A stretch of DNA of 64,000 bases from an uncultured Nitrospinota bacterium. Lineage in GTDB: Bacteria; Nitrospinota; Nitrospinia; Nitrospinales; JAJDAT01. The stretch is taken from assembly GCA_964344185.1 (NCBI GenBank), contig CAYFMN010000005.1, positions 65,516-129,515 of the forward strand. The letters are read 5' to 3'. A model generated the notes under the pieces. The model ran no database searches. It was not told the DNA's origin and saw nothing but the letters and a program-made list of their open reading frames with translations. Positions 19,194 through 54,240 of the stretch are shown one piece after another; position 1 is the stretch's first letter; each line of letters opens with the position of its first letter. The translations under genes and the position numbers were made by a program.

Positions 19194-19284
<91 letters not shown>

Positions 19285-19349
19285 AATGTGGTATCTCTTT
19301 TAGGAAGGATAAAGATCTCTCGTTCTTTCCCGTTGCTTTCACCCTGCAA

Positions 19350-19436: not shown

Positions 19437-19450
19437 AACGAACGAATGAG

Positions 19451-19524
19451 CACGCCCAAGAGGACTCGAACCTCCGACCTTCGGTTCCGCAAACCGACGC
19501 TCTATCCAGCTGAGCTATGGGCGC
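19451..19524 (-). tRNA. tRNA-Arg(GCG)
   Basis: Reverse complement is GCGCCCATAGCTCAGCTGGATAGAGCGTCGGTTTGCGGAACCGAAGGTCGGAGGTTCGAGTCCTCTTGGGCGTG. Stem TCGGT/ACCGA closes the loop TTGCGGA, giving anticodon GCG. A20 is present in the D-loop. Positions 1:72 form a G:U pair. Confidence 0.75.
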
Positions 19525-19647
19525 TTAATATTCGATATAAATTTAACTAAACCTATTTATAAAACCAAGGCTTTGGGAACTAAAATCAAAATGATTCCTA
19601 AGAAACTAACTCTAATTTAAGAGGAAACAACACTCCTACGGAACGTT

Positions 19648-19675
19648 GAGATCTCCCCACTTCGGTCGAGATGAC
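19648..19675. repeat. short intergenic hairpin repeat (GTCAT...GAGATCTC family)
   Basis: gagatctccccacttcggtcgagatgac. Its reverse complement is gtcatctcgaccgaagtggggagatctc, the same design as the copies at 45.2, 45.4 and 63.0-63.3 kb. Confidence 0.5.
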
Positions 19676-19726
19676 GTTAGGGAGTTAGTTCCTAAATCAA
19701 CAAACTAAAAATCCCAATAAAGAGTT

Positions 19727-20326
19727 TTAAGAGACTCCCATAGGAATATAATCGGTCAACAAAATTTCATACCGCTCATGTTCAAAACCGTAAAGTTTGG
19801 GAAACCGCTTAAACGCCCAACCTTCAAAAATCCGTTTGTCCTTTTCATGAACAATAAATTGAACGGCCGGGTTAGTAGGTTCATTACCCAAAGATGTATA
19901 GTATACCTTATCCATCACAAAGTTTGGAAAAAACGCCCCAACAGTAACCGTCAAATCGGAACCAGTCAAAACAAACGACTCGCCTAAATTAACGGTTTTG
20001 ACTTCGGTTTTTTCCTCGTCTTGTTTATCCTTTATTATAAACTTTACGGCTTTCCACTTTCCTTCAACTTCTTTGGGAATTTGTATTGCGCGTTGTTGTT
20101 TTTGATTCTCGGTAATTTCCGGATGATTTTCCACCTCGGTACGCGAACCTTCGGCGTAAGCCGAACTCTCAGCTTTAACCATTGGCTTTGGGGCCATACC
20201 CGGTAAATTAACCTCGCTTAAAGGGATTTCCCTTGGCTTTTGGTTTCTCTTGGCTAAATCCGCTTCCGAACAACCAAAAGAAACAAAAGCGATAATTAAT
20301 AAAAGAGTTTTCAGTCCTTGCATCAA
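19727..20326 (-). CDS. hypothetical lipoprotein embedded in the tRNA array
   Basis: 199 aa with signal peptide and lipobox (LLIIAFVSFGC|SE). No family confidently recognised. Confidence 0.65.
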   Translation of the reverse strand: MMQGLKTLLLIIAFVSFGCSEADLAKRNQKPREIPLSEVNLPGMAPKPMVKAESSAYAEGSRTEVENHPEITENQKQQRAIQIPKEVEGKWKAVKFIIKDKQDEEKTEVKTVNLGESFVLTGSDLTVTVGAFFPNFVMDKVYYTSLGNEPTNPAVQFIVHEKDKRIFEGWAFKRFPKLYGFEHERYEILLTDYIPMGVS

Positions 20327-20347
20327 GCGGTTTTATCCTAAGTTTTA

Positions 20348-20441
<94 letters not shown>

Positions 20442-20470
20442 TTATAATTCTCAATCAATAATAGCAACAA

Positions 20471-20553
20471 CGGAGGGAGTAGGATTCGAACCCACGGAAC
20501 TTTCGTTCAACGGTTTTCAAGACCGCCGCCTTAAACCACTCGGCCATCCCTCC
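20471..20553 (-). tRNA. tRNA-Ser(TGA), class II, no encoded CCA
   Basis: Reverse complement is GGAGGGATGGCCGAGTGGTTTAAGGCGGCGGTCTTGAAAACCGTTGAACGAAAGTTCCGTGGGTTCGAATCCTACTCCCTCCG. Anticodon loop is CTTGAAA. Confidence 0.85.
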
Positions 20554-39871: not shown

Positions 39872-42661
39872 TTAGTCATAGAAGGTCTCTCTGGCGTTGT
39901 AATAGGCTGATCTGTTTTTTCTTTCTTCCATTCTCACAGGTTTTTGGTGCGTTTCATCCAGATGTTTAGAACCTAATTTAACTATAATGGCGCCTCGGAC
40001 GCGAGCGTCCTTTTTCCGAGCAATTTTATAGTTTTTTTCGTCTATTACCGCTTCATTAAGGTTTGCGTGATGGAGAATCGTCGTGCCAAACTCTACGCCC
40101 CTCAAATCCGCTCCAGTGAGATCAGCGGCTCTCAAGTTTGCCATTGAAAAATCGGCTCTGCTAAAATCGGCCTCATGAAAAATAGATTCTGAAAGGTCCG
40201 CGCGTTTAAAACTGGATCTAGAAAAATTAGCCTCGGAAAAATCTAATCGTTTATTTGGATTGTTTTTCGTTAAAATCTGGTTATCAAAATTTAAATCGTG
40301 AAGAAATTGAAATACAAGTCGCGCTGGTAGTTTTTTATATAGAGCAATTCGTTTCAACAATGAAATAAATCCCCGAGGATCTCCCCATTCCACTTTAGTG
40401 GGGTTTTGAACGCTATTTCCACAATGAGCGGAAAAAGCCAGCAACGCCGTTGTTGTATTTGAGAAAAACCGATCCAAATTACCGGGATTATTTTCCATTT
40501 GCAGTTCGGTTAACGCCTCGCGCAATGGAAGATTGTTCCGAACGGCCTCTGACAAAAATAAACCGAATCTAAGTTGTAATGCTTTTATCGCTTCTTGATC
40601 GTGGCGAAATCGTTTTTCTTCGCCTTTTAATAATCTTATAATTTGGTTGTCTAAGAGAATTGGCCCCGTTAGTTTGATCCATTTCAATAAGGCTTGGTTC
40701 AAATTCCAGCCTTCATTGCCGCTAGATTCTTCGTGTCGTATTGTTTGCAATCTCATTTGCCATGCGGTGCCCGATAAACATCTCGCCACTAAATATTTTT
40801 GTAGATTCGGGAAAGAAAAATAGAATAAACGTTCGCCCGTCGGTGTCCATTCTGTTTCAAAAAAACAAGTTGTCATTAAACCTAGAATTGGATCGTCGCA
40901 AGAAAAAACGTTTGATAAAGATTCTAAAGATTCTTTACGATCAGAATCGTGAATGTGGTCTCGAATTTGATTTAAAGTCGCTGCGCCGCCATGGTTATTA
41001 CAGGCGACGGCGATATCCTCTAACAGCCGAAAATAATCTTTTTCTCGAAGAGGCCAGGATTGTTTTAAGAACTTCTTGAATAAATTAAATAACCGCGAAA
41101 AAATTTTTTCATAAATATTGTTGGCATTTTTTTCGCTTATTCCTTCATTTATCGCAATATCCGTCAATGTTTGGTTCATCCAGGGATTGCGAGAGATATC
41201 TTCAAACGGAATTGAATTGAATTTAGATAAGATTTCATCCGCTTTGGTCTCCAGTTGTTTTTGTAACGCGCTTTGCCATTTAATTCGGTTATCAAACGCT
41301 AAAGATTTTGACGCGTTAGCTCTGGTTTTTCGGATATCAAATTCAAATGGCAACAAAGAAAGGCATAAAGCTTTTTCTTTTAACGCTTCAGCGAGCCATT
41401 GCGCTGGAATATTATGAGAAGAAATTGCTATTTTTAAATTTTTGTTTTTATCTTCTTCAATCAATTGAATTATTTTTTTTGCAAACATATCTAAAGAAGA
41501 ACTTGATTCGGAGCTCAACCAAAGATCTTCAAGAAATTCTAAAATCAGGACAGTTTTTCTATCAGGTGGAAATAATCGGGTTTGTTCTTTTTGAAAAAAA
41601 CCTTGCGCTTGTAGACTTTCTAAAACCCCGTTTGCCGGTCCGCTTGTAGAGAGTATTTTTGACGCTGGCACAATAATGGGAAGGTGACTTCCAAACGGAT
41701 TGTTTGGGGAAGCCAGGGAAGCCGCCCATTTTCTAAACATGGTTGACTTTCCTGATCCAGGGGTTCCGGATACAAGAAAAAAAGGCGGAGAATCTTCGCT
41801 TTGAAGCCATTCATCTAAACAATTTTGAGCGTCTTCGATGAAACAAGGTTCCGACCAGGTTTCTTTTGTCATACCAGTTCCTGGATTTGGCCAATACTCC
41901 GCCATAGGGGGTATATAAATTTCTTTTTTTAAGTTAACCGATGGAACTTTATAAGAAACCAGGTTTTTTAAATAGGAAGCAAAATCTTCCTCGATCATGC
42001 GAGCGGAATTAATTTCCGATTTGCAAAAATTAAGAAAAGAACGATATCTGTTAAAATTTTTTGAAGCAATATTGAATAAATTGGATAAAAATAAGTTTTC
42101 GCAAACGGAAATAAAAATTTTGGTCTTCGCTTTTTCAAGGCCGAATTTTTCGATTTGAGCGCCTAACAATCGCCCCAATTCAGGAATGGGAGGATAGCTT
42201 CTTGGTCTGGATTCAATTACCGTCGAAAAAGAATAACTTTCGGCTTTTAAAGAAAGACTTTCAAGTTCTTTGTTGAACTCTATCCAATCACAATTTTCTA
42301 ATTGCGACTTATCCAGCGTTTCTTTGGAAATTCTTGATAAGGCTGTTTGAAAACTTTGGCGGTAGGCGTCTAGTAGCAGAAAAGTATAGGCTTCGCCAGG
42401 TTCTTCCAGTTTGTTTTCCGAAAGTTTTTCAAGAAAAGGTTCGTTTGATTTTTCAAAATTATGAGGTAATTGGAAAAGGCTTCCGGAGGCTATGGTTTTA
42501 CAAAATGCCTTTAAAGGATTTGCAATAGCCAAATCGAAACCGATTAACCATAATTCCTTGCCGGGTAATTCGGTTTTTCCTACTTTATCTTGAAGTGGAA
42601 CGTCTATGGCGAATATCTCCAAATAGGATTGAGAGATAAAATTTTTTAACCGCTTCGTCAA
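39872..42661 (-). CDS. STAND-type P-loop NTPase (NACHT-like) with unknown N-terminal domain and C-terminal pentapeptide repeats
   Basis: 929 aa. Walker A is SGTPGSGKST (encoded at about 41741-41767) and a Walker-B-like segment is VLILEFLEDL. A helical middle region follows. The C-terminus carries pentapeptide (A[DN]LxX) repeats, LDFSEANFSRSSFKRADLSESIFHEADFSRADFSMANLRAADLTGADLRGVEFGTTILHHANLNEA, encoded at about 40030-40270. Confidence 0.75.
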   Translation of the reverse strand: MTKRLKNFISQSYLEIFAIDVPLQDKVGKTELPGKELWLIGFDLAIANPLKAFCKTIASGSLFQLPHNFEKSNEPFLEKLSENKLEEPGEAYTFLLLDAYRQSFQTALSRISKETLDKSQLENCDWIEFNKELESLSLKAESYSFSTVIESRPRSYPPIPELGRLLGAQIEKFGLEKAKTKIFISVCENLFLSNLFNIASKNFNRYRSFLNFCKSEINSARMIEEDFASYLKNLVSYKVPSVNLKKEIYIPPMAEYWPNPGTGMTKETWSEPCFIEDAQNCLDEWLQSEDSPPFFLVSGTPGSGKSTMFRKWAASLASPNNPFGSHLPIIVPASKILSTSGPANGVLESLQAQGFFQKEQTRLFPPDRKTVLILEFLEDLWLSSESSSSLDMFAKKIIQLIEEDKNKNLKIAISSHNIPAQWLAEALKEKALCLSLLPFEFDIRKTRANASKSLAFDNRIKWQSALQKQLETKADEILSKFNSIPFEDISRNPWMNQTLTDIAINEGISEKNANNIYEKIFSRLFNLFKKFLKQSWPLREKDYFRLLEDIAVACNNHGGAATLNQIRDHIHDSDRKESLESLSNVFSCDDPILGLMTTCFFETEWTPTGERLFYFSFPNLQKYLVARCLSGTAWQMRLQTIRHEESSGNEGWNLNQALLKWIKLTGPILLDNQIIRLLKGEEKRFRHDQEAIKALQLRFGLFLSEAVRNNLPLREALTELQMENNPGNLDRFFSNTTTALLAFSAHCGNSVQNPTKVEWGDPRGFISLLKRIALYKKLPARLVFQFLHDLNFDNQILTKNNPNKRLDFSEANFSRSSFKRADLSESIFHEADFSRADFSMANLRAADLTGADLRGVEFGTTILHHANLNEAVIDEKNYKIARKKDARVRGAIIVKLGSKHLDETHQKPVRMEERKNRSAYYNARETFYD

Positions 42662-42834: not shown

Positions 42835-42909
42835 TGGCTCCGGAGACAGGACTCGAACCTGTAACACAGCGGTTAACAGCCGCTTGCGCTACCATTGCGC
42901 CACTCCGGA
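42835..42909 (-). tRNA. tRNA-Asn(GTT), CCA encoded
   Basis: Reverse complement is TCCGGAGTGGCGCAATGGTAGCGCAAGCGGCTGTTAACCGCTGTGTTACAGGTTCGAGTCCTGTCTCCGGAGCCA. Anticodon loop is CTGTTAA. Confidence 0.9.
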
Positions 42910-43382: not shown

Positions 43383-43763
43383 AAGACCCTCCGTTCCATT
43401 AGCAGATAACGTACCGATAGATAAAGAGAACCAGAAAAACAAATGATATTATCAATCGTCACTGTAAATGTAGCCTATGTAGAAAAAATCCGGCAAATAG
43501 ATTATATATTAATTTTATTAAATTTAAAGTCTTTTGTTAAAATTAATATATAATTTTTTTCTGATTAAAATTTTGCTTCCATCCTTTCTCAAAATTGTGG
43601 GACAAAGTTTGGCTAGCAATTAAATATTCGTTAGAATAACTATATTATGAGACCTAAAAAAATTTTTGCCAGCTTTATTTACATTTTGTGACAATCTTTT
43701 ATATTTGTAACATATGTGAATTTAAAGGACTTATCTAGATTTTGGAAATAAATGGAGCGTCTG

Positions 43764-44996
43764 ATGAATGAGTTTAAATCGTTTTTAGCAGTAATATTGT
43801 CTTTCGGATTATTTTTATTAATAGGTTGTGAAAAAGAATTAAAAGAACATCCGCTTCCCGAATCCGTTAAGCGGCGTTTAGAAATGGCCAATGATCCGGA
43901 AGTCCAAAAGAAAAAAGTAACGGGAACAATTCAATTACCCGCTGAGATTTCTCAAAAAATTTCTCGGACCGCTTCATTATTTATTTTTGCGCGACCTATT
44001 GGCGTTGAAAGTGGGCCGCCTTTAGCTGTTAAGCGATTAGGCGTGGTAAATTTTCCATTTGAGTTTAATATTGGTCAAATGGATACCATGCTGCAAGGCG
44101 CAGATTTTTCAGGAAAAGTCACTATCTCAGCAAGATTAGATACCGACGGAGTTGCAGGAGGCGGTCCAGGAGATGTGGAAGGAAAAGTCGACGCCACTGT
44201 TGGGGATACTGGAGTTGAAATTATTTTAAATCAAATAGTTGGCGGTGAAAAACAATCAGTAGAAGCAAGTCTTGGCGGCAATCAAGCTATTTTGGGTAAG
44301 ATAGTCTTAGATCCTAAGATAAAAGATTCTGTTCCAAAAGAAGGCTCGCTTTTTGTTTTTGTTAGACCAGAGGGAGTTTTTGGCGGTCCTCCGCTTGCGG
44401 TTAAACGCATGGCGTTTACGGGTTTTCCTCAAAATTTTTCTATTAGCGAGAAGGACGCAATGAGGTCCACGGCTCGTTTTGAAGGAAATCTAACGTTGGC
44501 AGTTCGTTTGGACCAAGATGGCGACGCCCGGTCCGCTCCTGGAGATGTTGAAGGTTCGATGATAACCAAAGGGGGAGTCGACGGACTTGAGTTGGTTTTG
44601 GATAAAGTGATCGGCGCTCCGGTAGAAGATAAAGGCGGTTCTATGGAACCCGTAGAACCTAAATCGATAACGGGCGTTATTGAATTAGATCCAAAAATCG
44701 CAAAAGAGATTCCAATAGAGGATTTAAGATTGTTTATCTTATTGCGTCCTGAAGGGCAGACAAGCGGACCGCCAATGGCCGTTCAGTTGTTTGGCGCAGT
44801 CGAGTTTCCGTTATCATTTGAGATTGGTCAGAAAGATGCGATGATGCCTGGCACGACTGTGGAGGGTCCGGTTGAAGTGATCGTCCGCGTTGATAGAGAT
44901 GGCAACGCCAAATCTTCCCCAGGTGATTTAGAAGGACAAACCAATGCGGTTGTTGGCGATAAAAATATTAAGATCGTATTGGATAAAAAAGTTTAA
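43764..44996 (+). CDS. lipoprotein made of three tandem ~110-aa repeats resembling the C-terminal domain of cytochrome c maturation protein CcmI/CycH
   Basis: Lipobox LLIGC|E. Each repeat reads ...LF(I/V)F(A/V)RP.G...GPP(L/M)AV(K/Q)...FP..F.I...DAM.......G.V.(I/L)..R(L/V)D.DG.A...PGD(V/L)EG... The ORF track starts at 43752, but the ATG at 43764 has a GGAG 6 nt upstream. Confidence 0.65.
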   Translation: MNEFKSFLAVILSFGLFLLIGCEKELKEHPLPESVKRRLEMANDPEVQKKKVTGTIQLPAEISQKISRTASLFIFARPIGVESGPPLAVKRLGVVNFPFEFNIGQMDTMLQGADFSGKVTISARLDTDGVAGGGPGDVEGKVDATVGDTGVEIILNQIVGGEKQSVEASLGGNQAILGKIVLDPKIKDSVPKEGSLFVFVRPEGVFGGPPLAVKRMAFTGFPQNFSISEKDAMRSTARFEGNLTLAVRLDQDGDARSAPGDVEGSMITKGGVDGLELVLDKVIGAPVEDKGGSMEPVEPKSITGVIELDPKIAKEIPIEDLRLFILLRPEGQTSGPPMAVQLFGAVEFPLSFEIGQKDAMMPGTTVEGPVEVIVRVDRDGNAKSSPGDLEGQTNAVVGDKNIKIVLDKKV

Positions 44997-45020
44997 GAGC
45001 TAAAAGCAAAAATAAAAAAT

Positions 45021-45047
45021 GTCACATTGAGGTTCTCGAAATGTGAC
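45021..45047. repeat. short hairpin repeat (TCACATTGAG...CGAAATGTGA type)
   Basis: gtcacattgaggttctcgaaatgtgac, with inverted ends gtcacat/atgtgac. A related copy lies at 45261-45284. Confidence 0.55.
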
Positions 45048-45098
45048 TCCCTTATTTTAGTTCCTTGGAATGTTCTCGAAGTACGACCACCTTTAAAA

Positions 45099-45120
45099 AG
45101 CCGGGCATTCTAGCCCGGCT
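45099..45120. terminator. GC-rich hairpin (possible bidirectional terminator)
   Basis: agccgggc attcta gcccggct, preceded by aaaaa and followed by ttcttcc. The T-run is better on the minus strand, where no gene ends. Confidence 0.35.
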
Positions 45121-45205
45121 TTCTTCCTCTATAATTGAAATAGAAATTAGATTTTAGGTTTATTCGTAAAACAAAGTTTCGCCTAAAGTGATCGGCCAAT
45201 CCGAC

Positions 45206-45244
45206 GTCATTCTGGAGGAGCTTTGAAAAAGCGACGAAGAATCT
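45206..45244. repeat. short intergenic repeat (GTCATTCTG...CGAAGAATCT type)
   Basis: gtcattctggaggagctttgaaaaagcgacgaagaatct. It has the same termini as the copies at 63017-63081 and 63301-63339. Confidence 0.55.
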
Positions 45245-45260
45245 AGGTATCAAAAAAATA

Positions 45261-45284
45261 TCACATTGAGCTTGTCGAAATGCA
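45261..45284. repeat. short hairpin repeat (TCACATTGAG...CGAAATG type), degenerate copy
   Basis: tcacattgagcttgtcgaaatgca. By hand alignment it matches 45022-45045 at about 20 of 24 positions. Confidence 0.5.
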
Positions 45285-45370
45285 ACTTCTTCCATCAGTT
45301 ATCTCGACTGAAGTGAATAGATCCCGTTTTTAGTTTAACAATCCGTTTTGTTTATAACCATCCCTACCGC

Positions 45371-45424
45371 GCGTTATTCCGAGCCCTTCGGCTTTGCTCA
45401 GAATAAACTCCGTCGAGGAATCTC
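45371..45424. repeat. short intergenic repeat (GTTATTCCGAG...GAGGAATCTC type)
   Basis: gcgttattccgagcccttcggctttgctcagaataaactccgtcgaggaatctc, with inner inverted repeat ttattc/gaataa. Confidence 0.5.
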
Positions 45425-45773
45425 GCTTAGATTCAAATAATTGTTATACCAAGGATCTCTTACTTAATTGCGCGACCATAACCAATTTTGTTTTCCAATT
45501 TTTTATTATCAGATCAACTTGGATTTGGCAGGGCAAAGTCTAAGTTAAGCCAATTTTCGTGAGCCCGAGCTTGATTCGGGTATTTTGGAAAACTAAAAGC
45601 AATGGACTATTTTCAGTTTGGTTAAAATATTGAAAGTTTTCCCCTTAATCTTAAAAAACCCTGAATTTCCTCTAGTTATTTTCCTTCCATGTAAAAAGTG
45701 TTTTTCACTGTCCTTCCTCTAGGTTACAATTGTTTCACAACTAAATTTTGTTAATTCCTTTCCAATCATCGCT

Positions 45774-48700
45774 ATGAAACCACTTCGCAAAATCTATTCG
45801 CTTGTTTTCATTCTATTGTTAATCGGAAATTTTGGATGTGGGGCGCCGCATTCAAAACCATATGCTGTTGCTTTAAATAAAGAAGCAAATGAAGCCGAAA
45901 CTTTAGCCGCCTCTGGAAATTATCGTAAAGGAGCGGAAGCATACGAAACCGCTTTAGAAAATTATAAGAAACAAAACAACAACGCAGGTATTTTATATTC
46001 TCTGGGACAAATGGGAATTATGCAAAAACGGGCTGGCGACTACGACGCGGCTTTAAAAACATTTAATGAAGCTAAAAATGTTGGCGTGAAAGTGAATGGC
46101 GATGCGGCGGAAATTGACGCTCATATTGGCGATGTTTATATGTTTATGGGCGATTTTAATAAAGCTCGGACCCAATACAATAACGCTTTGCAAACTCATA
46201 GCGGTTTTGTTTTTCCGACATCCTATGCGGGTCCTCCAAGTAAGGAAGAACTTTCTGAATTGATTCGTAAATCTAGCGCGATTGTCCGTTCGCAAGTTAA
46301 TTTGGGAGCTTTGAATTTATTTGAAGGCAAATTGGACGCCGCCGAAGCCGAGCTTAAAAAAGCGGAAAAATTGACCAAAGATATTTTATACGTTGGTAAT
46401 CATCCTATTTATGGGATGGTGTATAAGCCTGATACAGACGTATTCGAAGGAACAGGTTTTGCTAAAACTTTCCTGGGAGCTGTATACAAAGAAAAAGGCG
46501 ACGCACAAAAAGCGAAAGGCTATTTGCGCGAGGGTATGGCTTCTTTTGAAAAAGGAAACTCCGCTTTTGGAAAATCCGTCAACAGCGCCCTTTCGTTTCA
46601 ATTTGATTGGTTATCCGATTCCCAAAACGCTGAACGAAGAGTCGCCGCTGGCGATTATCCTTCTGCCGTTGCAGAGTATCAAAAACTAATCGGTCGTTAT
46701 AAAGAAAAAGGCGATTTTCGTCGTCAATTGATGGCTATCGAGAGAGCCGGTTGGCTTTTGCGAGAAATGGGTCAATACAGCGACGCCCTGGAATTACTGG
46801 CTCAAGGGGCTGAAATAGGCAGGCAGAAAAACGGCGACGCAGCGGAAATTGACGCTAATATTGGGGACGTTTATTTGTTTGCGGGAAACCGGCAGCGGGC
46901 TATGGAATATTTTGAAAAATCTTTAGCGCCTCACCAAGGATTTTCCATGCCAACGGGTAAAGCCGTTGAAGTTCCTAAAAAAGGCCAAATGTATAACTGG
47001 ATGAGAATCGCAAAAGCGATTATCCACGCTCAGGTCAATCGAGGAACGGTTTATTACTTTAATAAAAATCCGAATAAGGCTCTTGAGGCTTTGGACGAAG
47101 CAAAACAAATGGTTGACGCCGTTTTAGAAACCGCGAACCATCCAATCCGTGGCGTGTTTTATAGAGCCGATTCGGATTTGTATGAGGGTATTGGATTTTA
47201 CCGCGCAATTCGCGGCGCCGTTTTTGGCGAATTGAAACGGTTTGATCAATCTTCCAAGGAATTTGATTTGGCCTTAAAAATGTTTGTGCAGGCTGGCAGA
47301 CCCTATGGAGCTTTGATTACGCGTGCGCTTCGAATTCAAACAGAAACCTTGCAACCTGGCAAGAAGTTTTCCCAATCAGATATTTCCCGATATCAAGGTT
47401 TTTTAGTGGAAGCAGAAATGTTTGGAGCTTTAGATCTAGTTTGGCGAGTGGGTTATAGAGCCGGTTCCCTGTTGGCAAAAAACAAAAATTATGCGGAGGC
47501 AAAAAACTTTTTGGTCAAAGCCGTTGACGCTATTGAAAAGACTCGCTCGAACATTCGCGAAGATACAGTAAAGCAAATGTTCTCCGGATCGGTTCAAGAC
47601 GTTTATGAGGCCATTGTCGGTTTACTATTTGACATGGGAGAATTTTCTGAAGGTTTTAATTATTTAGAAAGAGGGAAAGCAAGAGCTTTCCTGGATATGC
47701 TGGCCGGTAGATCCTTAAAACCGAAAGTCGCCGCCGATCCGCAGATTATTCGTCAAATTGCCGACTTGGATAAACAAATTGAAAAAACGGCGCGAAGTTT
47801 AAAAGCTTTAAAAGGCGCAGAAAAACTTGGCGTTTACAAAAAGTTTAAGAGTTTATTAAAAGAAAAAAGTCGAGCGTTAGAGAAAATTAAAGATCAAAGC
47901 TTAAGTTACGCTTCTTCAATGTCGGTAGCTACCGCTTCGGCGAAAAAAATTCAAAGCTCATTGCCTAAAGGTGCGCTATTGATTTCTTATTTCCTGGAAG
48001 ATTCCCGCGCTGTTATTTGGACTGTCGAGCAAAGTTCGATTGAAGCGACCCTGGCAAAAAACGGCGGAAAGAAGATTGCTCAATGGGCTGCAGATTATAG
48101 AGAAGCTCTAGCTTCTGGCCAAATGCAGTTGGCAGAATCATTGGGAAGCAAACTTTATGATAGTTTAATTCAACCTGTCCGAAGTCGTTTGGACCCAAAA
48201 CAAAAACTTATTTTGGTTCCTTCCGGCGCTTTACATTACTTGCCATTTGCCGGACTTCATGGAAAGGACGGCAAATACCTGATAGAAAATCAAACAGTTT
48301 CTGTGCTTCCAAATGCGTCAAGTTTATTTTACGTTGAAGGGATTATTAAGACCGATAAAGGGAAGATACTTGCTTTTGGAGATCCTCAAAGAGACCAAAA
48401 AGAATCGCGTCTAAAATACGCTAATAAAGAAGTTGAAGCGGCTAGTAAATTATTTCCTAAAAAAATTACTTTAACCGGCGAAAGCGCTAAAGAATCCGTT
48501 TTAAAAAACTTATCAAAAATTGACGCAGAAGTATTACACTTTGCCGTACACGGACGTTTTGATGAACGAGATCCTTTGAAATCTGCATTATTATTAGCTA
48601 AAGATTCTAACGAAGACGGGGATTTAGAAACTTACGAGATATATGGATTGAATTTAAATTCCAATCTTGTGGTTTTAAGCGCTTGCGAATCTGGAATCGG

Positions 48701-48953
48701 TAAGCTTACGCGCGGCGATGAAGTGCAGAGTTTGAATCGCGCTTTTATTTATGCTGGAGCTGGCGGCGTGATAGCCAGTTTGTGGAAAGTTTCCGACGAA
48801 TCCACATTTAAACTAATGACTTATTTTTACGAAGAATTGTCCAAACGCGGACCGGCGGATGCCTTGCGTTTGGCTCAAATAAAATTAATGAAAGAGTTTC
48901 CTTCACCCTATCATTGGGCGGCTTTTTATTTAACCGGTAGATTGGATTCTTAG
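45774..48953 (+). CDS. exported TPR-repeat protein with C-terminal CHAT (caspase-like) protease domain
   Basis: 1059 aa. The N-terminal leader is LVFILLLIGNFGCGAP. Multiple TPR-like pairs follow. The CHAT domain carries a His/Cys dyad context: LHFAVHGRF (His) and LVVLSACESGIG (Cys). Confidence 0.8.
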   Translation: MKPLRKIYSLVFILLLIGNFGCGAPHSKPYAVALNKEANEAETLAASGNYRKGAEAYETALENYKKQNNNAGILYSLGQMGIMQKRAGDYDAALKTFNEAKNVGVKVNGDAAEIDAHIGDVYMFMGDFNKARTQYNNALQTHSGFVFPTSYAGPPSKEELSELIRKSSAIVRSQVNLGALNLFEGKLDAAEAELKKAEKLTKDILYVGNHPIYGMVYKPDTDVFEGTGFAKTFLGAVYKEKGDAQKAKGYLREGMASFEKGNSAFGKSVNSALSFQFDWLSDSQNAERRVAAGDYPSAVAEYQKLIGRYKEKGDFRRQLMAIERAGWLLREMGQYSDALELLAQGAEIGRQKNGDAAEIDANIGDVYLFAGNRQRAMEYFEKSLAPHQGFSMPTGKAVEVPKKGQMYNWMRIAKAIIHAQVNRGTVYYFNKNPNKALEALDEAKQMVDAVLETANHPIRGVFYRADSDLYEGIGFYRAIRGAVFGELKRFDQSSKEFDLALKMFVQAGRPYGALITRALRIQTETLQPGKKFSQSDISRYQGFLVEAEMFGALDLVWRVGYRAGSLLAKNKNYAEAKNFLVKAVDAIEKTRSNIREDTVKQMFSGSVQDVYEAIVGLLFDMGEFSEGFNYLERGKARAFLDMLAGRSLKPKVAADPQIIRQIADLDKQIEKTARSLKALKGAEKLGVYKKFKSLLKEKSRALEKIKDQSLSYASSMSVATASAKKIQSSLPKGALLISYFLEDSRAVIWTVEQSSIEATLAKNGGKKIAQWAADYREALASGQMQLAESLGSKLYDSLIQPVRSRLDPKQKLILVPSGALHYLPFAGLHGKDGKYLIENQTVSVLPNASSLFYVEGIIKTDKGKILAFGDPQRDQKESRLKYANKEVEAASKLFPKKITLTGESAKESVLKNLSKIDAEVLHFAVHGRFDERDPLKSALLLAKDSNEDGDLETYEIYGLNLNSNLVVLSACESGIGKLTRGDEVQSLNRAFIYAGAGGVIASLWKVSDESTFKLMTYFYEELSKRGPADALRLAQIKLMKEFPSPYHWAAFYLTGRLDS

Positions 48954-48956
48954 CGC

Positions 48957-51017
48957 TTGGAACCGAATAAAAAAAGCGCAAGGCAGTTGGTTTCTGCAAG
49001 CGTCGCGATTTTAGCGTGCTTATTGGCGATAGTCTTTTCTAATTGGTCGCCGATAGAAACGCTTGAAAATAAAACCATCGATTGGCGGCTTCGGTTTCGT
49101 CTTCCTAACTTTGAGGCGGGTAAAGAAGTGGCGGTCGTTTTGATAGACGATGCGGCGTTGGACGTGTATCCATATCGAAGCCCTGTGCCTCGCGATTTAC
49201 TAGCAAAATTAATAGATGTTCTTTCCGAAGCGGGCGTTAAACGAATTGGGTTGGATGTTTTTCTAAAAGATTTGACCTGGGAAGACGAGGACGAAGCGCT
49301 TGCGGAATCTTTAAGAGCTAATGGCCGAACGACGCTTGTATCTACTTTTCGCGAAGAAGACGGCAAAATAGTATGGGATTTACCTCATCCAAAATTTTTA
49401 GATTCTGTAGACTCCACAGGCTTGGCGGATTTACCGATAGATCCAATCGATCAAATTGTGCGGGAAGCGACGGCTCTAAAAAATAATTCGGAAACAATTG
49501 TTCCAACGCTTTCCGCCGCAATGCTTTTGGCTTCTAAAACATCGGAAGTGGGGAAACCGGAAGCTCCGAAAATTTTACAAGAAGCATTGCCGTCTTTTGC
49601 CCGTAAAGGTCAAAAGTTTATTGTTGATTTTTTAGGACCGCCTTCTTCCGTTAGCCGTGAAAAATATGCGATTAAGACGTTTCCGGCATCAGGCGTTCTT
49701 ACGGGATTTTTACCTAAGGAATGGTTTGCAGGCAAGTACGTTTTTATTGGCGCCGGTTTTTCCGATAACACGGACACCTTTCGCACTCCTTATTATAGTG
49801 GAAAATACAATTATCCCTTAACGCCTGGAGTGGAAATTCATGCGAACGTTTTGGCCACGCTTTTGAGCGGGGGAAAAATAAAAGCTTCTACAAATGTTCA
49901 AAAATTCGGGACAATTTTTCTAGGGGCTTTAGTGTCGGTAATTATCTCTTTTGTTTTTTCGCCGGTAATAGCGGCTTTTTTTGAAATTGTTTTCATTGCC
50001 GGGTTTGTTTTTGCAACGTTTGCAATGTTTGAAAAGGCGAATCTGCTTTTGCCAATGATACCCGTTGGCTTGGCGGTAGGTTTTGCTTTTATTGGAGCTA
50101 TAATTTATAAGCTAACCTGGGAAGGACGCCAAAAGCGGTGGATAAAAAACGCTTTTCAAATGTACCTGTCGCCAGAGTTCGTAGAAACCTTGTCCAAAAG
50201 CCCTGAACAGCTAAATTTGGGAGGGGAGGAAAGAGAACTCACTATAATGTTTACCGATCTGCAAGGATTTACCGCTATTTCGGAAACAGTCGAACCGAAA
50301 GAATTGGTGAACCTCCTGAGCGATTATTTTGATGGTATGACAGAAATTATTTTTAGGTACGGAGGCACTCTTGATAAATACGTTGGCGACGCTATTATGG
50401 CCTTTTGGAACGCTCCAACAGATCAAACGGACCATGCCGAAAGATCGGTTTTAGCGGCTATAGATATGATTGAGTTTACTGAAAATATGAGCCATTCGTT
50501 TCGAAAAAGAGGGAATCCTGAGATTCGAACGCGTATTGGAATCAACACGGGAAAAGCTGTTGTTGGTAATGTTGGTTCCAGAAAGAGGTTTAACTATACG
50601 GTAATGGGCGACGTGGTTAATACAGCGGCGAGATTGGAAAGCGTTAACAAGCAATATGGAACCTTTTTAACAATAAGCGAATCAACTTTTGATCGCGTAC
50701 GGGATAAAGTTCGAGCCAGGAAACTGGATGTTGTTCGAGTTAAAGGAAAAACCCAGCCGGTTGCTATTTATGAATTAATTGGTAGAAAAGGAAGGTCTTT
50801 AGACAGCGAGCGCGAACAGGTTATGGAGGCTTACTGCGAAGGGTTGGAGGCATATAATCGCCGGCATTGGGAAACCGCCATTCATCATTTTATATCGGCT
50901 CTCCAAATTGATCCAAACGACGGCCCGAGTAAAATTTATTTAGAGAGATGTAGAACGCTACGCGATAACCCACCTAAGAAAAGTTGGGATGGAGTTTTTA
51001 ATTTATTATCCAAATAA
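48957..51017 (+). CDS. CHASE2 sensor-domain class III adenylate/guanylate cyclase
   Basis: 686 aa with a TTG start 3 nt after the CHAT gene stop. An N-terminal TM is followed by a periplasmic CHASE2-like region and 3 TM helices. Cyclase motifs are MFTDLQGFT, YVGDAIMAFWNAP, IGINTGKAVVGNVGS and YTVMGDVVNTAARLES. The tail is TPR-like. Confidence 0.85.
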   Translation: MEPNKKSARQLVSASVAILACLLAIVFSNWSPIETLENKTIDWRLRFRLPNFEAGKEVAVVLIDDAALDVYPYRSPVPRDLLAKLIDVLSEAGVKRIGLDVFLKDLTWEDEDEALAESLRANGRTTLVSTFREEDGKIVWDLPHPKFLDSVDSTGLADLPIDPIDQIVREATALKNNSETIVPTLSAAMLLASKTSEVGKPEAPKILQEALPSFARKGQKFIVDFLGPPSSVSREKYAIKTFPASGVLTGFLPKEWFAGKYVFIGAGFSDNTDTFRTPYYSGKYNYPLTPGVEIHANVLATLLSGGKIKASTNVQKFGTIFLGALVSVIISFVFSPVIAAFFEIVFIAGFVFATFAMFEKANLLLPMIPVGLAVGFAFIGAIIYKLTWEGRQKRWIKNAFQMYLSPEFVETLSKSPEQLNLGGEERELTIMFTDLQGFTAISETVEPKELVNLLSDYFDGMTEIIFRYGGTLDKYVGDAIMAFWNAPTDQTDHAERSVLAAIDMIEFTENMSHSFRKRGNPEIRTRIGINTGKAVVGNVGSRKRFNYTVMGDVVNTAARLESVNKQYGTFLTISESTFDRVRDKVRARKLDVVRVKGKTQPVAIYELIGRKGRSLDSEREQVMEAYCEGLEAYNRRHWETAIHHFISALQIDPNDGPSKIYLERCRTLRDNPPKKSWDGVFNLLSK

Positions 51018-51050
51018 GAGAAAAGATTTAAAAATTGCCGGAGCGATATT

Positions 51051-51944
51051 ATGGGGAAAAAATTACAATTTATTATGAGCGTTGTTTTAATTTCCACAGT
51101 TTTAATTTTTTCGTTATGGGGATTATGTAGCGCGAATTCAGGCGTTTTAATTTCTGTGAAAGGGAAAGTCGAAATTGTTTCAGACGGAAAAACAACTACG
51201 GCAAAGCCTGGTCAAACGTTGGCTTCTGGGGATTTAATTAAAAGTATGGGCGGGACGGCGGTTTTGGTTTTGGCTTCCGGGAAAACTCAAGCGATAAATG
51301 CATCACAAGAATATAGAATATCCAAAGGAGCGGACGTTAAAAAAAATGGTTTGGGAACGCGTTTAGCTTCTGCTTTAAGCGAAGCAAAAGAAAAGGGAAA
51401 AACTCCGTTCGTTCGTGGAATGGTTAGGGCTGGAGAAGGTTTTAAACTTCTCTACCCTTCAAATTCGACGGTATTACCCAATCGTTTAATGTTTGACTGG
51501 ATTGGACGCGAAAATACAGCCGAGGCTAAAATAATAGTTAAATCTGAGGATTCTGATTTTAACTTTTCTTTTAGTCCCGATTTAGACGCGGAAACAATTA
51601 TCTGGCCTGAGAATGGTCCGGAATTAACCGCTAATCAGCGGTATTACTGGAAAGTTACAGGTATGAATTTGGAGTCGATGGAAGAAAGTTCGAGCGGGTT
51701 GCGGTGGTTTCGCGTCTTATCCCCAAGCGAGTCAAATGAACTGGAAAAGGGGATTCAAAGTATTTTACGGATAAAAGGTATTGAGTCCCCAGATAAAGAG
51801 CTTTTAAAAGCGGCCTTATTTTATTCATTCCAACTGGATCACGAAGTTTTGGATTTATTGCAAGCCGTTAGCAAATCGGGAGAATTGGGCGAAAGTGGGA
51901 AAGAGTTGTTGGTGGCAGTTAAAAAGCGAATGGAAGGCGTTTGA
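51051..51944 (+). CDS. exported FecR-domain-like protein
   Basis: 297 aa with a signal peptide (...LWGLCSA|NS). The N-terminal beta-rich segment GVLISVKGKVEIVSDGKTTTAKPGQTLASGDLIKSMGGTAVLVLASGKTQAINASQEY matches the FecR-type pattern. Confidence 0.6.
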   Translation: MGKKLQFIMSVVLISTVLIFSLWGLCSANSGVLISVKGKVEIVSDGKTTTAKPGQTLASGDLIKSMGGTAVLVLASGKTQAINASQEYRISKGADVKKNGLGTRLASALSEAKEKGKTPFVRGMVRAGEGFKLLYPSNSTVLPNRLMFDWIGRENTAEAKIIVKSEDSDFNFSFSPDLDAETIIWPENGPELTANQRYYWKVTGMNLESMEESSSGLRWFRVLSPSESNELEKGIQSILRIKGIESPDKELLKAALFYSFQLDHEVLDLLQAVSKSGELGESGKELLVAVKKRMEGV

Positions 51945-51987
51945 CATGGCGGTAAAATTTTCCTTAATTTACGGTGAAATTAGGAAA

Positions 51988-52015
51988 TTGGGTAAATTTT
52001 TACCCAATTATTTTT
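51988..52015 (+). terminator. Rho-independent terminator closing the CHAT-CHASE2-FecR operon
   Basis: ttgggtaa attt ttacccaa (8-bp perfect stem) followed by ttattttt. Confidence 0.55.
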
Positions 52016-52174
52016 GCATTAAATTTTAGAATATTTTGTTAACTGCATAATTTATTATAAAATAAAGCGTTAAGGGGCTTGGTTAATTTGACTCGAAAAT
52101 GGCGCTGAGTTTGCTTTATATAACGATAATTACTAACTCATTCAAATTTTTGTCGTTATTTTAAGGAGACCGCC

Positions 52175-52405
52175 ATGACAAAAAATCCAATTTCCGATTT
52201 TTGGGATAATTACGATTGCTTGTTGCAACGCGATTCGTTTGGATCGGCGATTGATATTTTACTTGAAGAATTTCGATTATTAATTGAAGATAATTCCAAG
52301 ACTGCGCAAGCGATTGATAAACGCGAACCTTTGGATTTAATCGCTAATTATGCCAAAGAGGAAAATTATTACGATTTAGCCGAAATTCTGGGATTGGCAA
52401 CTTAA
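52175..52405 (+). CDS. hypothetical small acidic protein (76 aa)
   Basis: The ATG is preceded by AAGGAGA. No family recognised. Confidence 0.5.
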   Translation: MTKNPISDFWDNYDCLLQRDSFGSAIDILLEEFRLLIEDNSKTAQAIDKREPLDLIANYAKEENYYDLAEILGLAT

Positions 52406-52452: not shown

Positions 52453-52980
52453 ATGGCAAAAAAACTAACTTTTAAATCCGTTTTTGTTGGATTAGTTGTT
52501 TCGTCAGCGCTCATTTTTTGTTCCGGTTTTCTAACCTGGGATCTCTCTGATCCCGGTGGCAAAGATGAAAAAAAAGGAGAATTGTACCTTACCAAGGTAG
52601 ATCCTTTTCAACCTGCATGCATGCCCTGTGAAGATATTTACTATCTACGATTTGGCGAAAATAGAAAGAATTTTCGCGAATACCCGCTTTATTTCCAATC
52701 TGGTTACTACAAAATAGATTTATTTGGTCCCGAAGGAACCGAGATTTCTTTTTTCGGCGCTGAAAACTTTCAAACCTCTATGGGTTATTTAAAGGTAATT
52801 AAGCGCGATGGAGAAAGAGCGACCATTTACAATTTAGAAGATTTAAAGCCAGAAACTTGGGTTGAAATACCTGCCCAGCCTGGAGTGACAGGCGCTTACG
52901 CAATTTATTTTAGTCCGTATCCTAGCTTTCAAGAAAACATTGCGTCTATTTCCTGGAATTTAGAAAGTCAGGATCAATGA
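52453..52980 (+). CDS. hypothetical exported/lipoprotein (175 aa)
   Basis: N-terminal hydrophobic leader with Cys (SSALIFCSG). No family recognised. Confidence 0.55.
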   Translation: MAKKLTFKSVFVGLVVSSALIFCSGFLTWDLSDPGGKDEKKGELYLTKVDPFQPACMPCEDIYYLRFGENRKNFREYPLYFQSGYYKIDLFGPEGTEISFFGAENFQTSMGYLKVIKRDGERATIYNLEDLKPETWVEIPAQPGVTGAYAIYFSPYPSFQENIASISWNLESQDQ

Positions 52981-53018
52981 GATCGTTCCTTAATTAAAAA
53001 CCAAAATGGAATACTTTT

Positions 53019-53450
53019 ATGAAACGTTTCATTCTTTTTAGTTTTTTATTAACGTTGTTAGGGTGTAGCGGTTCTTTGCCATCTACTATTGGCGACTTTG
53101 CTCCTTGTCCAAAAAGTCCACGCTGCGTCTCCACAAAAAGTTCCATTGAGGAAAAAAGGATACAGCCTTTTAAATATTCAATATCTAAAGAAAAAGCAAA
53201 GAAGGAAGTAGTAAAAATTGTTCGGAAGATGCCGGGGGCGGAAATCAAGATAAATCGAGATAACTTTGTGCATGCAGAATTTACCACTCCATTAATGCGT
53301 TTTGTGGACGATGTAGAGTTTTATTTCGAAGGAGATGGAGTTATAAATTTTAGATCGTCTTCTCGGATGGGTTATTACGATTTTGAAACAAATCGAAACC
53401 GTATGGAAGAGATTAGGAAAAGTTTTTCCTCTGTTTCGGGCCTTAAATAG
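53019..53450 (+). CDS. DUF1499-family lipoprotein
   Basis: 143 aa with lipobox LLTLLGC|SG. Has CPKSPRCVST and FVDDVEFYF...RSSSRMGYYDFETNRNRMEEIR, which match my memory of the DUF1499 pattern. Confidence 0.65.
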   Translation: MKRFILFSFLLTLLGCSGSLPSTIGDFAPCPKSPRCVSTKSSIEEKRIQPFKYSISKEKAKKEVVKIVRKMPGAEIKINRDNFVHAEFTTPLMRFVDDVEFYFEGDGVINFRSSSRMGYYDFETNRNRMEEIRKSFSSVSGLK

Positions 53451-54078
53451 AGATTATTTCGGCAGCTATTTCATCCAAAGTTAAAACTTTGTCAATTGCA
53501 CCTTCCTCAATAGCTATTTTATTCATTCCAAAAACGGAGCTGGTTTTTTCTTCTTGAGCAATAGTAAGTCCGCCGTTGTTTCGAATAGTTATCATTCCTT
53601 CCACTCCATCGTCTCCCATTCCATTTAATATAATACCGATGACATTTTTTTTATAAGAACAAGCTAAAGAAGACAATAAAACGTCGCAAGAAGGACTGTA
53701 TAAATGAACAGATTCCTTTGAAATAGGTAATGCTGAATTTGAAGAGTTAATTTCCCAATCGCTTTCGGAAGGGCAAACGTAGACTTTTCTTCTTTCCAGC
53801 GTTTTATTTTCCTGAATGATTTCAACAGGCAATTTTGATTTAGAATTCAACCAGTGAGTGAAAGTATGAGCTGAATTCAACGCCATATGTTGAGCGATTA
53901 TTATAGTTTGGTTAAAGCTTTTTGGGAGCTGACCCAAAATAACTGATAATGCTTTTGGTCCGCCTGCAGAGCAAGCTATAGCAACGATTTTTTCGGGGAG
54001 AATACAGTTGCCGGTGTTTATCTGATGGTTTAGATTTTGGGCGCTCAAAAAGTCTTGTTTTTCAGCTAGATTTAACAT
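53443..54078 (-). CDS. CheB-type protein-glutamate methylesterase catalytic domain only (no receiver domain)
   Basis: Has VAIACSAGGPKAL (Ser), IIIAQHM (His) and LNGMGDDGVEG (Asp). The ATG at 54076-54078 is preceded by GGAG. The ORF track extends to 54120. Confidence 0.7.
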   Translation of the reverse strand: MLNLAEKQDFLSAQNLNHQINTGNCILPEKIVAIACSAGGPKALSVILGQLPKSFNQTIIIAQHMALNSAHTFTHWLNSKSKLPVEIIQENKTLERRKVYVCPSESDWEINSSNSALPISKESVHLYSPSCDVLLSSLACSYKKNVIGIILNGMGDDGVEGMITIRNNGGLTIAQEEKTSSVFGMNKIAIEEGAIDKVLTLDEIAAEIISI

Positions 54079-54240
54079 TTTTGAAACTCCAAATATTTTT
54101 AAATAGCAAAAAATATACATAGAAAGCTAATGTTATATGTATTAATATACAGACAATTTTGCTCAATGTCAAATGTCAATCGAGCCTAGAGTCCTAATTT
54201 TTTTTTAAAAAAGATTATGAATAAATGGTGAGTTGAAATG

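Follow-up and report, generated by a model that had tools for sequence, protein, structure and literature searches.

Organisation of the three-gene locus

In the current work, a stretch of 64,000 nucleotides (nt) from an uncultured Nitrospinota bacterium (contig CAYFMN010000005.1, positions 65,516 to 129,515), here referred to at its full length as the window and numbered from its first letter, was analysed with a focus on three adjacent forward-strand genes encoding a TPR-CHAT protease, a class III nucleotide cyclase carrying a CHASE2 sensor domain, and an MtxA-like secreted protein. The TPR-CHAT gene (45774-48953, + strand) begins with ATG and specifies 1059 amino acids (aa), the CHASE2 cyclase gene (48957-51017, + strand) begins with TTG and specifies 686 aa, and the MtxA-like gene (51051-51944, + strand) begins with ATG and specifies 297 aa. 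The stop codon TAG of the CHAT gene (48951-48953) is followed by CGC and then directly by the TTG of the cyclase gene at 48957, which leaves a gap of 3 nt, and 33 nt separate the cyclase gene from the third gene, whose ATG is preceded at a distance of 7 nt by GGAG, a ribosome-binding site with good spacing. The open reading frames (ORFs) and both spacings are exactly those of an earlier reading of this DNA (the original prediction), which had described the three genes as tightly linked and followed by a terminator.

A hairpin was indeed found behind the third gene at 51986-52009, consisting of a 10-bp stem with a 4-nt loop and followed by AUUUUUG, with a folding energy of -11.4 kcal/mol and a z-score of -2.3 relative to shuffled sequences. 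By its sequence and folding energy, this hairpin together with its U tract (51986-52016, + strand) resembles an intrinsic terminator closing the operon; the hairpin is AT-rich, and as a terminator it is plausible, not exceptional. The three genes are predicted from this arrangement to be co-transcribed as one unit. Some public gene calls let the cyclase begin 10 codons further in (TTG 48987, 676 aa), and some do likewise for the third gene by 8 codons (289 aa); these alternative starts leave the conclusions unchanged. The genes that flank the trio are not kept beside it in more distant Nitrospinota, and the three genes are therefore regarded as the unit.

The TPR-CHAT protease

The product of the first gene contains a CHAT domain (residues 790-1055, 48141-48938, + strand; Pfam E-value 2e-69) located behind a long TPR array with many TPR matches, and also matches the NCBIfam Csx29 model (E 1.6e-17). 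The catalytic dyad consists of His926 (codon 48549-48551) within HFAVHGRF and Cys971 (codon 48684-48686) within LSACESG, the two residues singled out by the original prediction, and these positions align to the 'CHGE' and 'GACES' motifs of catalytic Csx29 from the Protein Data Bank (PDB). The corresponding motifs H-x-A-x-H-G and LSAC-x-x-G are kept in all 15 aligned CHAT orthologues.

The export leaders of the CHAT protein and of the third protein were judged by eye, by hydropathy and by conservation across orthologues. The leader of the CHAT protein, MKPLRKIYSLVFILLLIGNFGC (residues 1-22, 45774-45839, + strand), is basic and then hydrophobic (hydrophobic segment at residues 6-25) and ends in Cys22, the putative lipidated residue. 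This Cys is invariant in every Nitrospinota and Desulfobacterota CHAT orthologue with a readable N-terminus, and in these orthologues it is followed after 6-8 residues by a conserved Y-A/Q/M-V; one orthologous gene call is too short, and an in-frame upstream ATG gives the leader back. Considering that the leader Cys is kept across both groups, the gene-1 product is probably a periplasmic lipoprotein, in keeping with the secretion or lipoprotein-type leader and the periplasmic location of the original prediction. Elsewhere, a canonical LLSAC lipobox is present in the TPR-CHAT protein of Niveispirillum, and the CHAT proteins of alphaproteobacterial MtxA operons carry signal peptides of the AxA type. 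Export signals were found on the CHAT protein and on the secreted partner in every orthologue with a readable N-terminus, so that an exported and, to judge from its residues, catalytically competent caspase-fold protease appears to be the constant wherever CHAT occurs with the module. In one Desulfobacteraceae metagenome-assembled genome (MAG; L021 1-1356) the CHAT gene is split into ORFs at 1-960 and 964-1356, which reflects a frameshift, an in-frame stop or an assembly error.

The CHASE2 adenylate cyclase

The second gene specifies a CHASE2 sensor domain (residues 22-327, 49020-49937, + strand; Pfam E 9e-39) and a class III cyclase domain of the IIIb type (residues 426-600, 50232-50756, + strand; Pfam Guanylate_cyc E 5e-28), an architecture of two domains that is common to more than 2000 homologues. 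According to hydropathy, a first transmembrane segment (TM1) spans residues 7-34, and residues 314-388 (nt 49896-50120) form a block with room for three such segments, with basic residues before TM1 and after the last transmembrane segment. Since CHASE2 lies between TM1 and the three-segment block, and given the flanking basic residues, CHASE2 is placed in the periplasm, as originally predicted, and the cyclase domain in the cytoplasm. The cyclase is thus predicted to be a four-segment membrane protein composed of one transmembrane segment, a periplasmic CHASE2 domain, three transmembrane segments and a cytoplasmic catalytic domain. The motif GVEIHAN is invariant in nine of nine diverse CHASE2 cyclases.

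The best PDB matches of the cyclase domain are the bacterial adenylate cyclases 6fht, 2w01 and 3r5g (E 1e-36 to 3e-38). In class III cyclases two Asp residues bind metal, a Lys together with a Thr or Ser specifies the substrate, and an Asn and an Arg stabilise the transition state. Alignments to 6fht, 2w01 and CyaB (3r5g) recovered the complete catalytic set (Asp434, Asp478, Lys474, Thr548, Arg544, Asn555 and Arg559), on which the assignment made in the original prediction had depended. The Lys474/Thr548 combination, in which Lys474 specifies adenine, is the class IIIb pattern, as in CyaB of P. aeruginosa. The gene-2 product is therefore predicted to be an active homodimeric adenylate cyclase, with cyclic AMP (cAMP) as its product because of the Lys474/Thr548 specificity pair. 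The original prediction had allowed for cAMP or cGMP; the cyclase and cAMP stand, and cGMP is dropped on account of this pair.

The third protein, a predicted distant homologue of MtxA

The third protein possesses a leader of the form MGKK...GLCSA|NSG with predicted cleavage after Ala28, and hydropathy gave this cleavable leader as its only hydrophobic segment, with no further transmembrane segment. It had originally been taken for a FecR-like protein with a signal peptide, of which the signal peptide was upheld and the FecR identity was not. No Pfam match whatsoever was obtained for the protein even at E<=10, either to FecR (PF04773) or to the MtxA models, and the absence of a PF04773 match at this threshold extended to its N-terminal domain alone, to three orthologues and to MtxA. 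On PF04773, genuine FecR proteins encoded beside CHASE2 cyclases reach E-values of 3e-6 to 2e-15, and an hhalign comparison with one such protein covered only 45 columns at 8% probability. What is shared with the start of the FecR domain is the pattern L-x-x-G-D-x-V-K-[ST]...G-x-A, located at the start of the beta domain. The anti-sigma context of FecR proteins, in which an N-terminal cytoplasmic anti-sigma domain and a transmembrane helix are paired with an ECF sigma factor or a TonB-dependent transducer, is not seen either: besides the lack of a further transmembrane segment, neither a sigma factor gene nor a TonB receptor gene was present among the flanking ORFs examined (43752-44996 and 52453-54120). 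Membership of the FecR family was rejected on the basis of the missing PF04773 match and the 8% hhalign probability; gene 3 only occupies the operon position that is held by FecR-domain proteins beside other CHASE2 proteins.

A word-indexed search for relatives of gene 3 returned close relatives only, and a word search seeded with a profile added just four distant members, while an exhaustive profile search yielded 203 representative proteins, mostly of approximately 300 aa. A first AlphaFold2 model, built on nine close sequences, was poor (mean predicted local distance difference test, pLDDT, of 58) and was replaced by a model based on an alignment of 60 sequences (pLDDT 91.6). In the latter, the signal peptide (residues 1-28) is followed by an N-terminal beta domain (29-92), a helix and linker, an Ig-like domain (approximately 131-223) and a four-helix TPR-like domain (224-297). 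A Foldseek search of the PDB with this model placed the C-terminal, Ig-like plus TPR part of MtxA (4Z29, chain 4z29_A) at rank 1 (E 1.4e-5, 169 columns, target-normalised TM-score 0.55-0.59). By hhalign, a 24-member family alignment that includes the window protein matched an alignment of six MtxA sequences at 96.5% probability (E 9.3e-10) over 268 columns, pairing residues 9-297 with 5-295, and the hidden Markov model (HMM) of the gene-3 family matches one MtxA at E 7e-6. Based on the full-length hhalign alignment and the top Foldseek match, the gene-3 product is classed as a predicted distant, Sec-exported homologue of MtxA. The window protein is too diverged for the Pfam MtxA models (PF24045, PF22433 and PF22121; no match at E<=10), on which genuine MtxA scores 1e-30 to 1e-39. 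Furthermore, the gene-3 family profile found only a rhamnosidase Ig domain among PDB sequences, not MtxA, and a tblastn search of MtxA against plasmids gave no match.

The N-terminal domain of the third protein resembles the retention module of LapA and MpIBP (Foldseek match to 5ix9, TM-score 0.75 over 73 columns), and the protein matches NCBIfam NF033682 at E 0.0025, which is below the cut-off of that model. Among the 60 family members, DUF7354 is matched weakly by 5 and DUF928 by 13. In cyanobacteria, genes for DUF928 lie beside those for CHAT; nothing useful emerged here from two plasmid loci of cyanobacteria. Four giant proteins of 1400-5200 aa (P0037, P0042, P0049 and P0056) contain 8-9 tandem copies matching the Ig-like middle domain of the family.

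Conservation of the trio

Within the clade to which the window belongs the whole region is syntenic, and such synteny says little about function; the best species-level matches of the locus are Nitrospinales and Nitrospinia MAGs at 77-84% identity, and a locus search seeded with a four-sequence CHASE2 alignment recruited only close lineages. The order CHAT, cyclase, MtxA-like gene was found in five Nitrospinota and three Desulfobacteraceae/Desulfacyla species genomes; outside the clade of the window, the genomes with this order include two groundwater Nitrospinota and one further genome. On a fourth Desulfobacteraceae contig (L019) the DNA stops within the cyclase gene, short of any third gene. 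In Candidatus Electrothrix communis the order is MtxA-like gene, cyclase, CHAT, the partner is 23% identical to that of the window, and the locus lies among transposase genes.

MtxA-type loci were recruited from metagenomes by means of the signature KDDN[D/E]MRPLLI, which produced 13 contigs. A CHASE2 protein was detected on all 13, and in 6 of them, those in which a CHAT ORF was found, the order is mtxA, CHASE2 cyclase and then a TPR-CHAT gene of 1240-1320 aa. Pfam analysis of one such locus identified DUF7354, MtxA_IG-like and MtxA_C on a single protein and CHASE2 plus cyclase domains on its neighbour. Two loci of the Gemmatimonadota type retain the cyclase and the MtxA-like gene and carry a Peptidase_C14+DUF4384 protein in the position of the protease; their neighbours are an MBL-fold protein, a GAF-HD protein and a divergent SpoIIE protein that binds cyclic nucleotide monophosphates (cNMPs), all of these being cAMP-related genes. 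Just beyond the cyclase module, these Gemmatimonadota-type loci (L010 12195-16189 and L012 11825-15947) encode a second exported Peptidase_C14 protein and two CsgG-domain proteins, one of them with TPR. A Niveispirillum plasmid encodes a lipoprotein TPR-CHAT protein, a 227-aa secreted protein, a CHASE2 cyclase and a cNMP-binding protein.

The proteins of approximately 300 aa encoded downstream of the cyclases all match the HMM of the gene-3 family (E 1e-25 to 1e-112), and the MtxA-like gene adjoins the CHASE2 cyclase in all family loci examined. Nine CHASE2 cyclases were moreover picked for sequence diversity and long flanks, not for context, forming a small sample that is partly biased towards relatives of the window cyclase. 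A secreted beta-domain partner accompanies eight of the nine and a caspase-fold protease four, and at two of these picked loci the order is again CHAT, cyclase, MtxA-like gene. The trio is incomplete at two related loci that have the cyclase and the MtxA-like gene only, and at two cyclase loci that combine a true FecR-domain protein with a large unknown protein.

It is extremely improbable that the three genes are mere neighbours without a shared function. One Cloacimonetes CHASE2 cyclase does stand alone, as chance linkage would allow; against this, the linkage is kept across phyla at 23-50% identity, through a permuted order and a substitution of the protease family, with gaps of 0-50 nt in all loci. 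The persistence of the linkage at 23-50% identity, the permuted order and the replacement of CHAT by C14 constitute strong evidence for a shared function. The gene neighbourhood on which the original prediction relied thus recurs across phyla, with its order permuted once and its protease family swapped in another lineage, and the sequences point to the trio as a real, widespread, periplasm-facing signalling module.

MtxA owes its name to being conserved among magnetotactic bacteria and encoded close to the magnetosome island (PMC4439547), from which a role of the whole module in magnetotaxis, the original proposal for mtxA, could follow. That role is close to refuted by the published deletion, as the mtxA mutant is normal in magnetosomes and in magnetic swimming (PMC4439547), and the 203 representative clusters of the family, together with the occurrence of the trio in Nitrospinota, cable bacteria, Desulfobacteraceae and Gemmatimonadota-type genomes, also argue against it.

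A role in anti-phage defence or a comparable conflict, with the cyclase making a defence nucleotide as in Pycsar and the protease acting as effector or sensor, is considered very unlikely. The cyclase domain does match the PADLOC models of PycC (best E 1e-32), but these matches span only the generic class III cyclase fold, Lys474/Thr548 is an adenylate cyclase pair, and the PADLOC matches of the other two proteins consist of nothing beyond TPR. TPR-CHAT proteins are found in type III-E CRISPR systems and in a defence island controlled by DdvA, and the Electrothrix trio lies in mobile surroundings; on the other side, no gene for a cNMP-activated effector is present in the operon, both accessory proteins are predicted to be periplasmic, and the neighbours in the Gemmatimonadota-type and Niveispirillum loci are ordinary cAMP-turnover or receptor genes.

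Comparison with known systems

The closest counterpart of the window locus is the mtxA operon of Magnetospirillum gryphiswaldense (MGR_0208, PDB 4Z29), which has the same three components. MtxA, of 313 aa, shows a signal peptide and the four regions of the window protein, and its gene is followed by that of a CHASE2 adenylate cyclase (PMC4439547). The two systems differ in gene order, which is CHAT, cyclase, partner in the window and partner, cyclase, CHAT in the mtxA operon; in the CHAT protein, a predicted lipoprotein of 1059 aa in the window and a signal-peptide protein of 1240-1320 aa with an insert of about 35 residues after the catalytic His in mtxA-type loci; and in the host, which is a member of the Nitrospinota in one case and a magnetotactic alphaproteobacterium in the other.

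In S. meliloti, CyaD1, CyaD2 and CyaK (acting with NsrA and Clr) are CHASE2 receptors with a class III cyclase that make cAMP, as predicted for the window protein, and an exported partner of the beta-domain/TPR kind is likewise encoded adjacent to the cyclase, namely the FecR-domain protein SMc02177 beside cyaD1. CHASE2 is auto-inhibitory in that organism, its deletion from CyaD1 resulting in constitutive activity (PMC5498481). Unlike the MtxA-like fold of the window partner, the S. meliloti partner has a true PF04773 FecR domain, and a plant protein, perceived via a barrel in the outer membrane, serves as the signal. In the cyaK locus examined no CHAT or C14 gene lies beside cyaK, and Sinorhizobium is absent among the matches listed for a tblastn search of CHAT against plasmids (SMb20495 being a TPR-CHAT candidate whose gene was not located). 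On pSymB (L039 3315-6995 and 9003-10139), a 1227-aa FecR+TPR gene is located directly 5' of cyaK and overlaps it, with an IS110-family transposase gene on the 3' side; the PLSDB record is unannotated at this place.

In Campylobacterota, a CHASE2 adenylate cyclase, a phosphodiesterase and FecR-domain and TPR proteins cluster and are subject to horizontal transfer (PMC9239204). Compared from its description, that cluster differs from the window operon by its phosphodiesterase gene, and the paper describes neither CHAT nor a mechanism. A LysM-FecR gene adjoins a CHASE2 histidine kinase gene in the Burkholderia 'BiofilmReg' operon and in P. aeruginosa PA4035/36 (PMC5192318); as in the window, a FecR-type periplasmic partner is thereby placed beside a CHASE2 sensor, but the output is a histidine kinase, a protease is lacking, and the partner combines LysM with a true FecR domain.

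With regard to the protease, the TPR-CHAT proteins Csx29, separase and DdvA have the same fold and His/Cys dyad as the window CHAT protein. Csx29 and separase act in the cytoplasm, where RNA-bound Cas7-11 activates the former and loss of securin the latter, whereas the window protein is predicted to be periplasmic; in DdvA of M. xanthus, CHAT forms part of the signalling protein itself and its active site is incomplete, whereas the window protease is separate and its predicted output is cAMP rather than a sigma factor. By analogy only, with no homology claimed, the LapD/LapG/LapA system of Pseudomonas also combines a periplasmic cysteine protease with a membrane protein that joins cytoplasmic cyclic-nucleotide and periplasmic domains, and LapA is cleaved directly behind a small beta domain at its N-terminus, the retention domain, of the type that the N-terminal domain of the third window protein resembles. 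LapG, however, belongs to another protease family, LapD senses c-di-GMP from inside and makes no nucleotide, and LapA is a giant adhesin.

A conserved linker in the partner and a possible mechanism

Considering the evidence as a whole, it is likely that the three proteins work as one functional, periplasm-facing module controlling cAMP. The more specific statement that the three genes form one envelope signalling module, by which a periplasmic event is converted into cytoplasmic cAMP, is the best explanation overall and is put forward with modest confidence. In such a module the MtxA-like protein would be the near-constant periplasmic partner of CHASE2, acting as co-receptor or inhibitor, and CHASE2 would hold the cyclase off until a signal arrives, by analogy with CyaD1 of S. 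meliloti. The caspase-fold protease would be a second and optional input, its TPR array either sensing a periplasmic cue or being controlled by one, in the manner of other TPR-CHAT proteins. Gating of the sensor by the protease and the third protein, as suggested in the original prediction, likewise stands as a proposal. Once active, the protease may cut the partner and thereby either reset the cyclase or switch it irreversibly until new partner is made. The best guess for the position of the cut is a conserved and exposed linker that joins the N-terminal beta domain of the partner to its Ig-TPR part; the sensor itself, or an incoming protein signal, would be less likely targets.

This linker carries the motif P-F-V-R-G-M-V-R (residues 119-126, 51405-51428, + strand; family consensus P-T-V-x-G-M-V-R/K) and sits between the helix and the Ig-like domain of the partner, in the loop of lowest confidence of the model (residues 121-130, pLDDT 66). 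Of 60 family members, 56 have Arg or Lys at position 126, 39 have Gly at position 123 and 31 have Met at position 124, and the motif was found at every partner locus examined. The crystal of MtxA obtained after trypsin treatment held only residues 142-313 (PMC4439547), from which it follows that the linker of MtxA is exposed or accessible to proteases. Cut sites reported for TPR-CHAT proteases are VGM|KK for one craspase, which cuts after Met, and ExxR| for separase (PMC11506125), and the former bears a resemblance, by analogy, to the x-G-M-V-R/K of the partner. A precedent is also provided by DdvA, an anti-sigma factor whose periplasmic TPR-CHAT domain is proposed to cut a flexible linker (PMC11506125). 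The conserved, exposed linker may accordingly be regarded as a candidate protease site or, equally, as a candidate CHASE2 contact.

That CHAT cleaves the MtxA-like partner at the P-T-V-x-G-M-V-R/K linker is put forward as a tentative proposal, which we consider doubtful, and the same reserve applies to its generalisation, namely a widespread device in which an exported CHAT (or C14) protease irreversibly switches a CHASE2 cyclase by cutting an MtxA-like co-receptor at an exposed linker. Several observations weigh against cleavage of the partner and in part against the module as a whole. The protease is not obligatory, the nine sampled cyclases comprising four with a protease, two with the partner only, two with FecR plus the large unknown protein, and one with nothing. 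The linker is equally well kept where no protease gene lies within 7 kb (L009 and L041) and where the protease is C14, so that the motif did not discriminate between presence and absence of a protease gene among the loci compared, and MtxA proper has TTVRR, not GM, at the linker position aligned by hhalign. Being kept regardless of the protease, the linker may serve to bind CHASE2 and not to be cut. In addition, S. meliloti can perceive the plant signal without the FecR-domain protein encoded beside cyaD1 (PMC5498481), deletion of mtxA had no detectable phenotype under standard conditions (PMC4439547), and the leaders were called by eye and not by SignalP or LipoP, the lipobox of the window protein, G-N-F-G-C, being non-canonical.

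The persistence of the partner linker with or without an adjacent protease gene fits equally with a different substrate, in that the protease would process an incoming protein or peptide signal, or mature the cyclase ectodomain, and so provide the ligand for CHASE2 and the MtxA-like protein. The CHASE2 cyclases of S. meliloti respond to a protein signal, plant ribosomal uL2, via the outer-membrane protein NsrA (PMC13001267), and a long TPR array could hold an extended polypeptide. Nevertheless, the operon lacks a gene for a candidate ligand, and proteases of clan CD are usually highly substrate-specific regulators and not general processing enzymes. This possibility is considered rather unlikely.

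It is, furthermore, unlikely that the TPR-CHAT lipoprotein is itself the sensor, binding a CHASE2/MtxA-like complex and cleaving itself or shifting its conformation with no separate substrate. Such behaviour would be in line with the periplasmic TPR-CHAT of DdvA, whose dyad is in a resting state and which is proposed to cleave itself in trans, and with the allosteric control of TPR-CHAT proteases by binding partners (PMC11506125). It sits less well with the strict retention of the His/Cys dyad and its flanking motifs in 15 of 15 orthologues and with the replacement of CHAT by a catalytically typical C14 in Gemmatimonadota-type loci, from which it is argued that catalysis matters.

Upstream region and other features of the window

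The intergenic region upstream of the trio (44997-45773, 777 nt, non-coding) is the expected site of the operon promoter. It contains a weak sigma-70-like candidate, TTTTCA-17-TACAAT (45702-45730, + strand; 9 of 12 matches), located 44 nt 5' of the CHAT start; the region holds as many such sites as would be expected by chance. A 35-nt repeat, AAAAAATGTCACATTGAGGTTCTCGAAATGTGACT, is present in this region at 45014-45048 and 45253-45287 in copies that are 86% identical and that each contain an internal inverted repeat, with a related copy at 45072-45093. A strong GC-rich hairpin (gccgggc...gcccggc) lies at approximately 45094-45126, just 3' of the upstream gene. No Rfam match at the gathering score was obtained for the repeat region.

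The upstream gene (43752-44996, + strand) encodes a lipoprotein (leader ...FLLIGC) with three Ig_CycH domains (Pfam E 1e-43) and adjoins the operon only in close relatives. On the 3' side of the terminator, an ORF of 76 aa (52175-52405, + strand), for which a relative at 68% identity has a gene call at the same position (L001 11232-11462), is followed by genes for a 175-aa secreted protein and then a DUF1499 lipoprotein. Further away in the window are a cluster of five tRNA genes (19197-20553, - strand), one isolated tRNA gene (42838-42909, - strand), and an ORF of 929 aa (39872-42661, - strand) whose counterpart in the relative L001 has pentapeptide repeats and a faint match to NPHP3_N (STAND NTPase). 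Between approximately 26000 and 36000 the G+C content falls to 0.33-0.36, and the GC skew switches sign near 28 kb; this low-G+C region could be where the gene orientation changes, or a segment of foreign DNA.

Discussion

The co-occurrence of CHASE2, FecR-like and CHAT genes, which the original prediction had mentioned, is real and has in part been published (PMC9239204, PMC5192318, PMC5498481, PMC4439547). Full-text literature searches combining CHASE2 and CHAT returned no paper linking both, nor a mechanism. While the clustering of the genes is thus partly on record, the relationship of gene 3 to MtxA, the presence of TPR-CHAT genes in mtxA loci and the exchange of CHAT for C14 were not found reported. 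The window locus is a new and diverged member of a module that had already been noticed and is uncharacterised.

CHASE2 is among the commonest extracytoplasmic sensor domains of bacteria, and we know of no ligand or activation mechanism for it. According to the survey presented here, CHASE2 cyclases usually have a secreted beta-domain partner of the MtxA-like or FecR type and often an exported caspase-fold protease. The module offers handles on CHASE2 in the form of three defined proteins, one catalytic Cys and a candidate site of eight residues. MtxA, structurally solved but without an assigned function, now appears to be an accessory of CHASE2 cyclases in general and not a magnetotaxis protein, and the module represents a second setting for extracytoplasmic CHAT proteases, after DdvA. 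If the partner is indeed cut by the protease, this would constitute a proteolytic one-shot input into cAMP signalling, and would give MtxA a function and provide a first handle on the stimulus of CHASE2.

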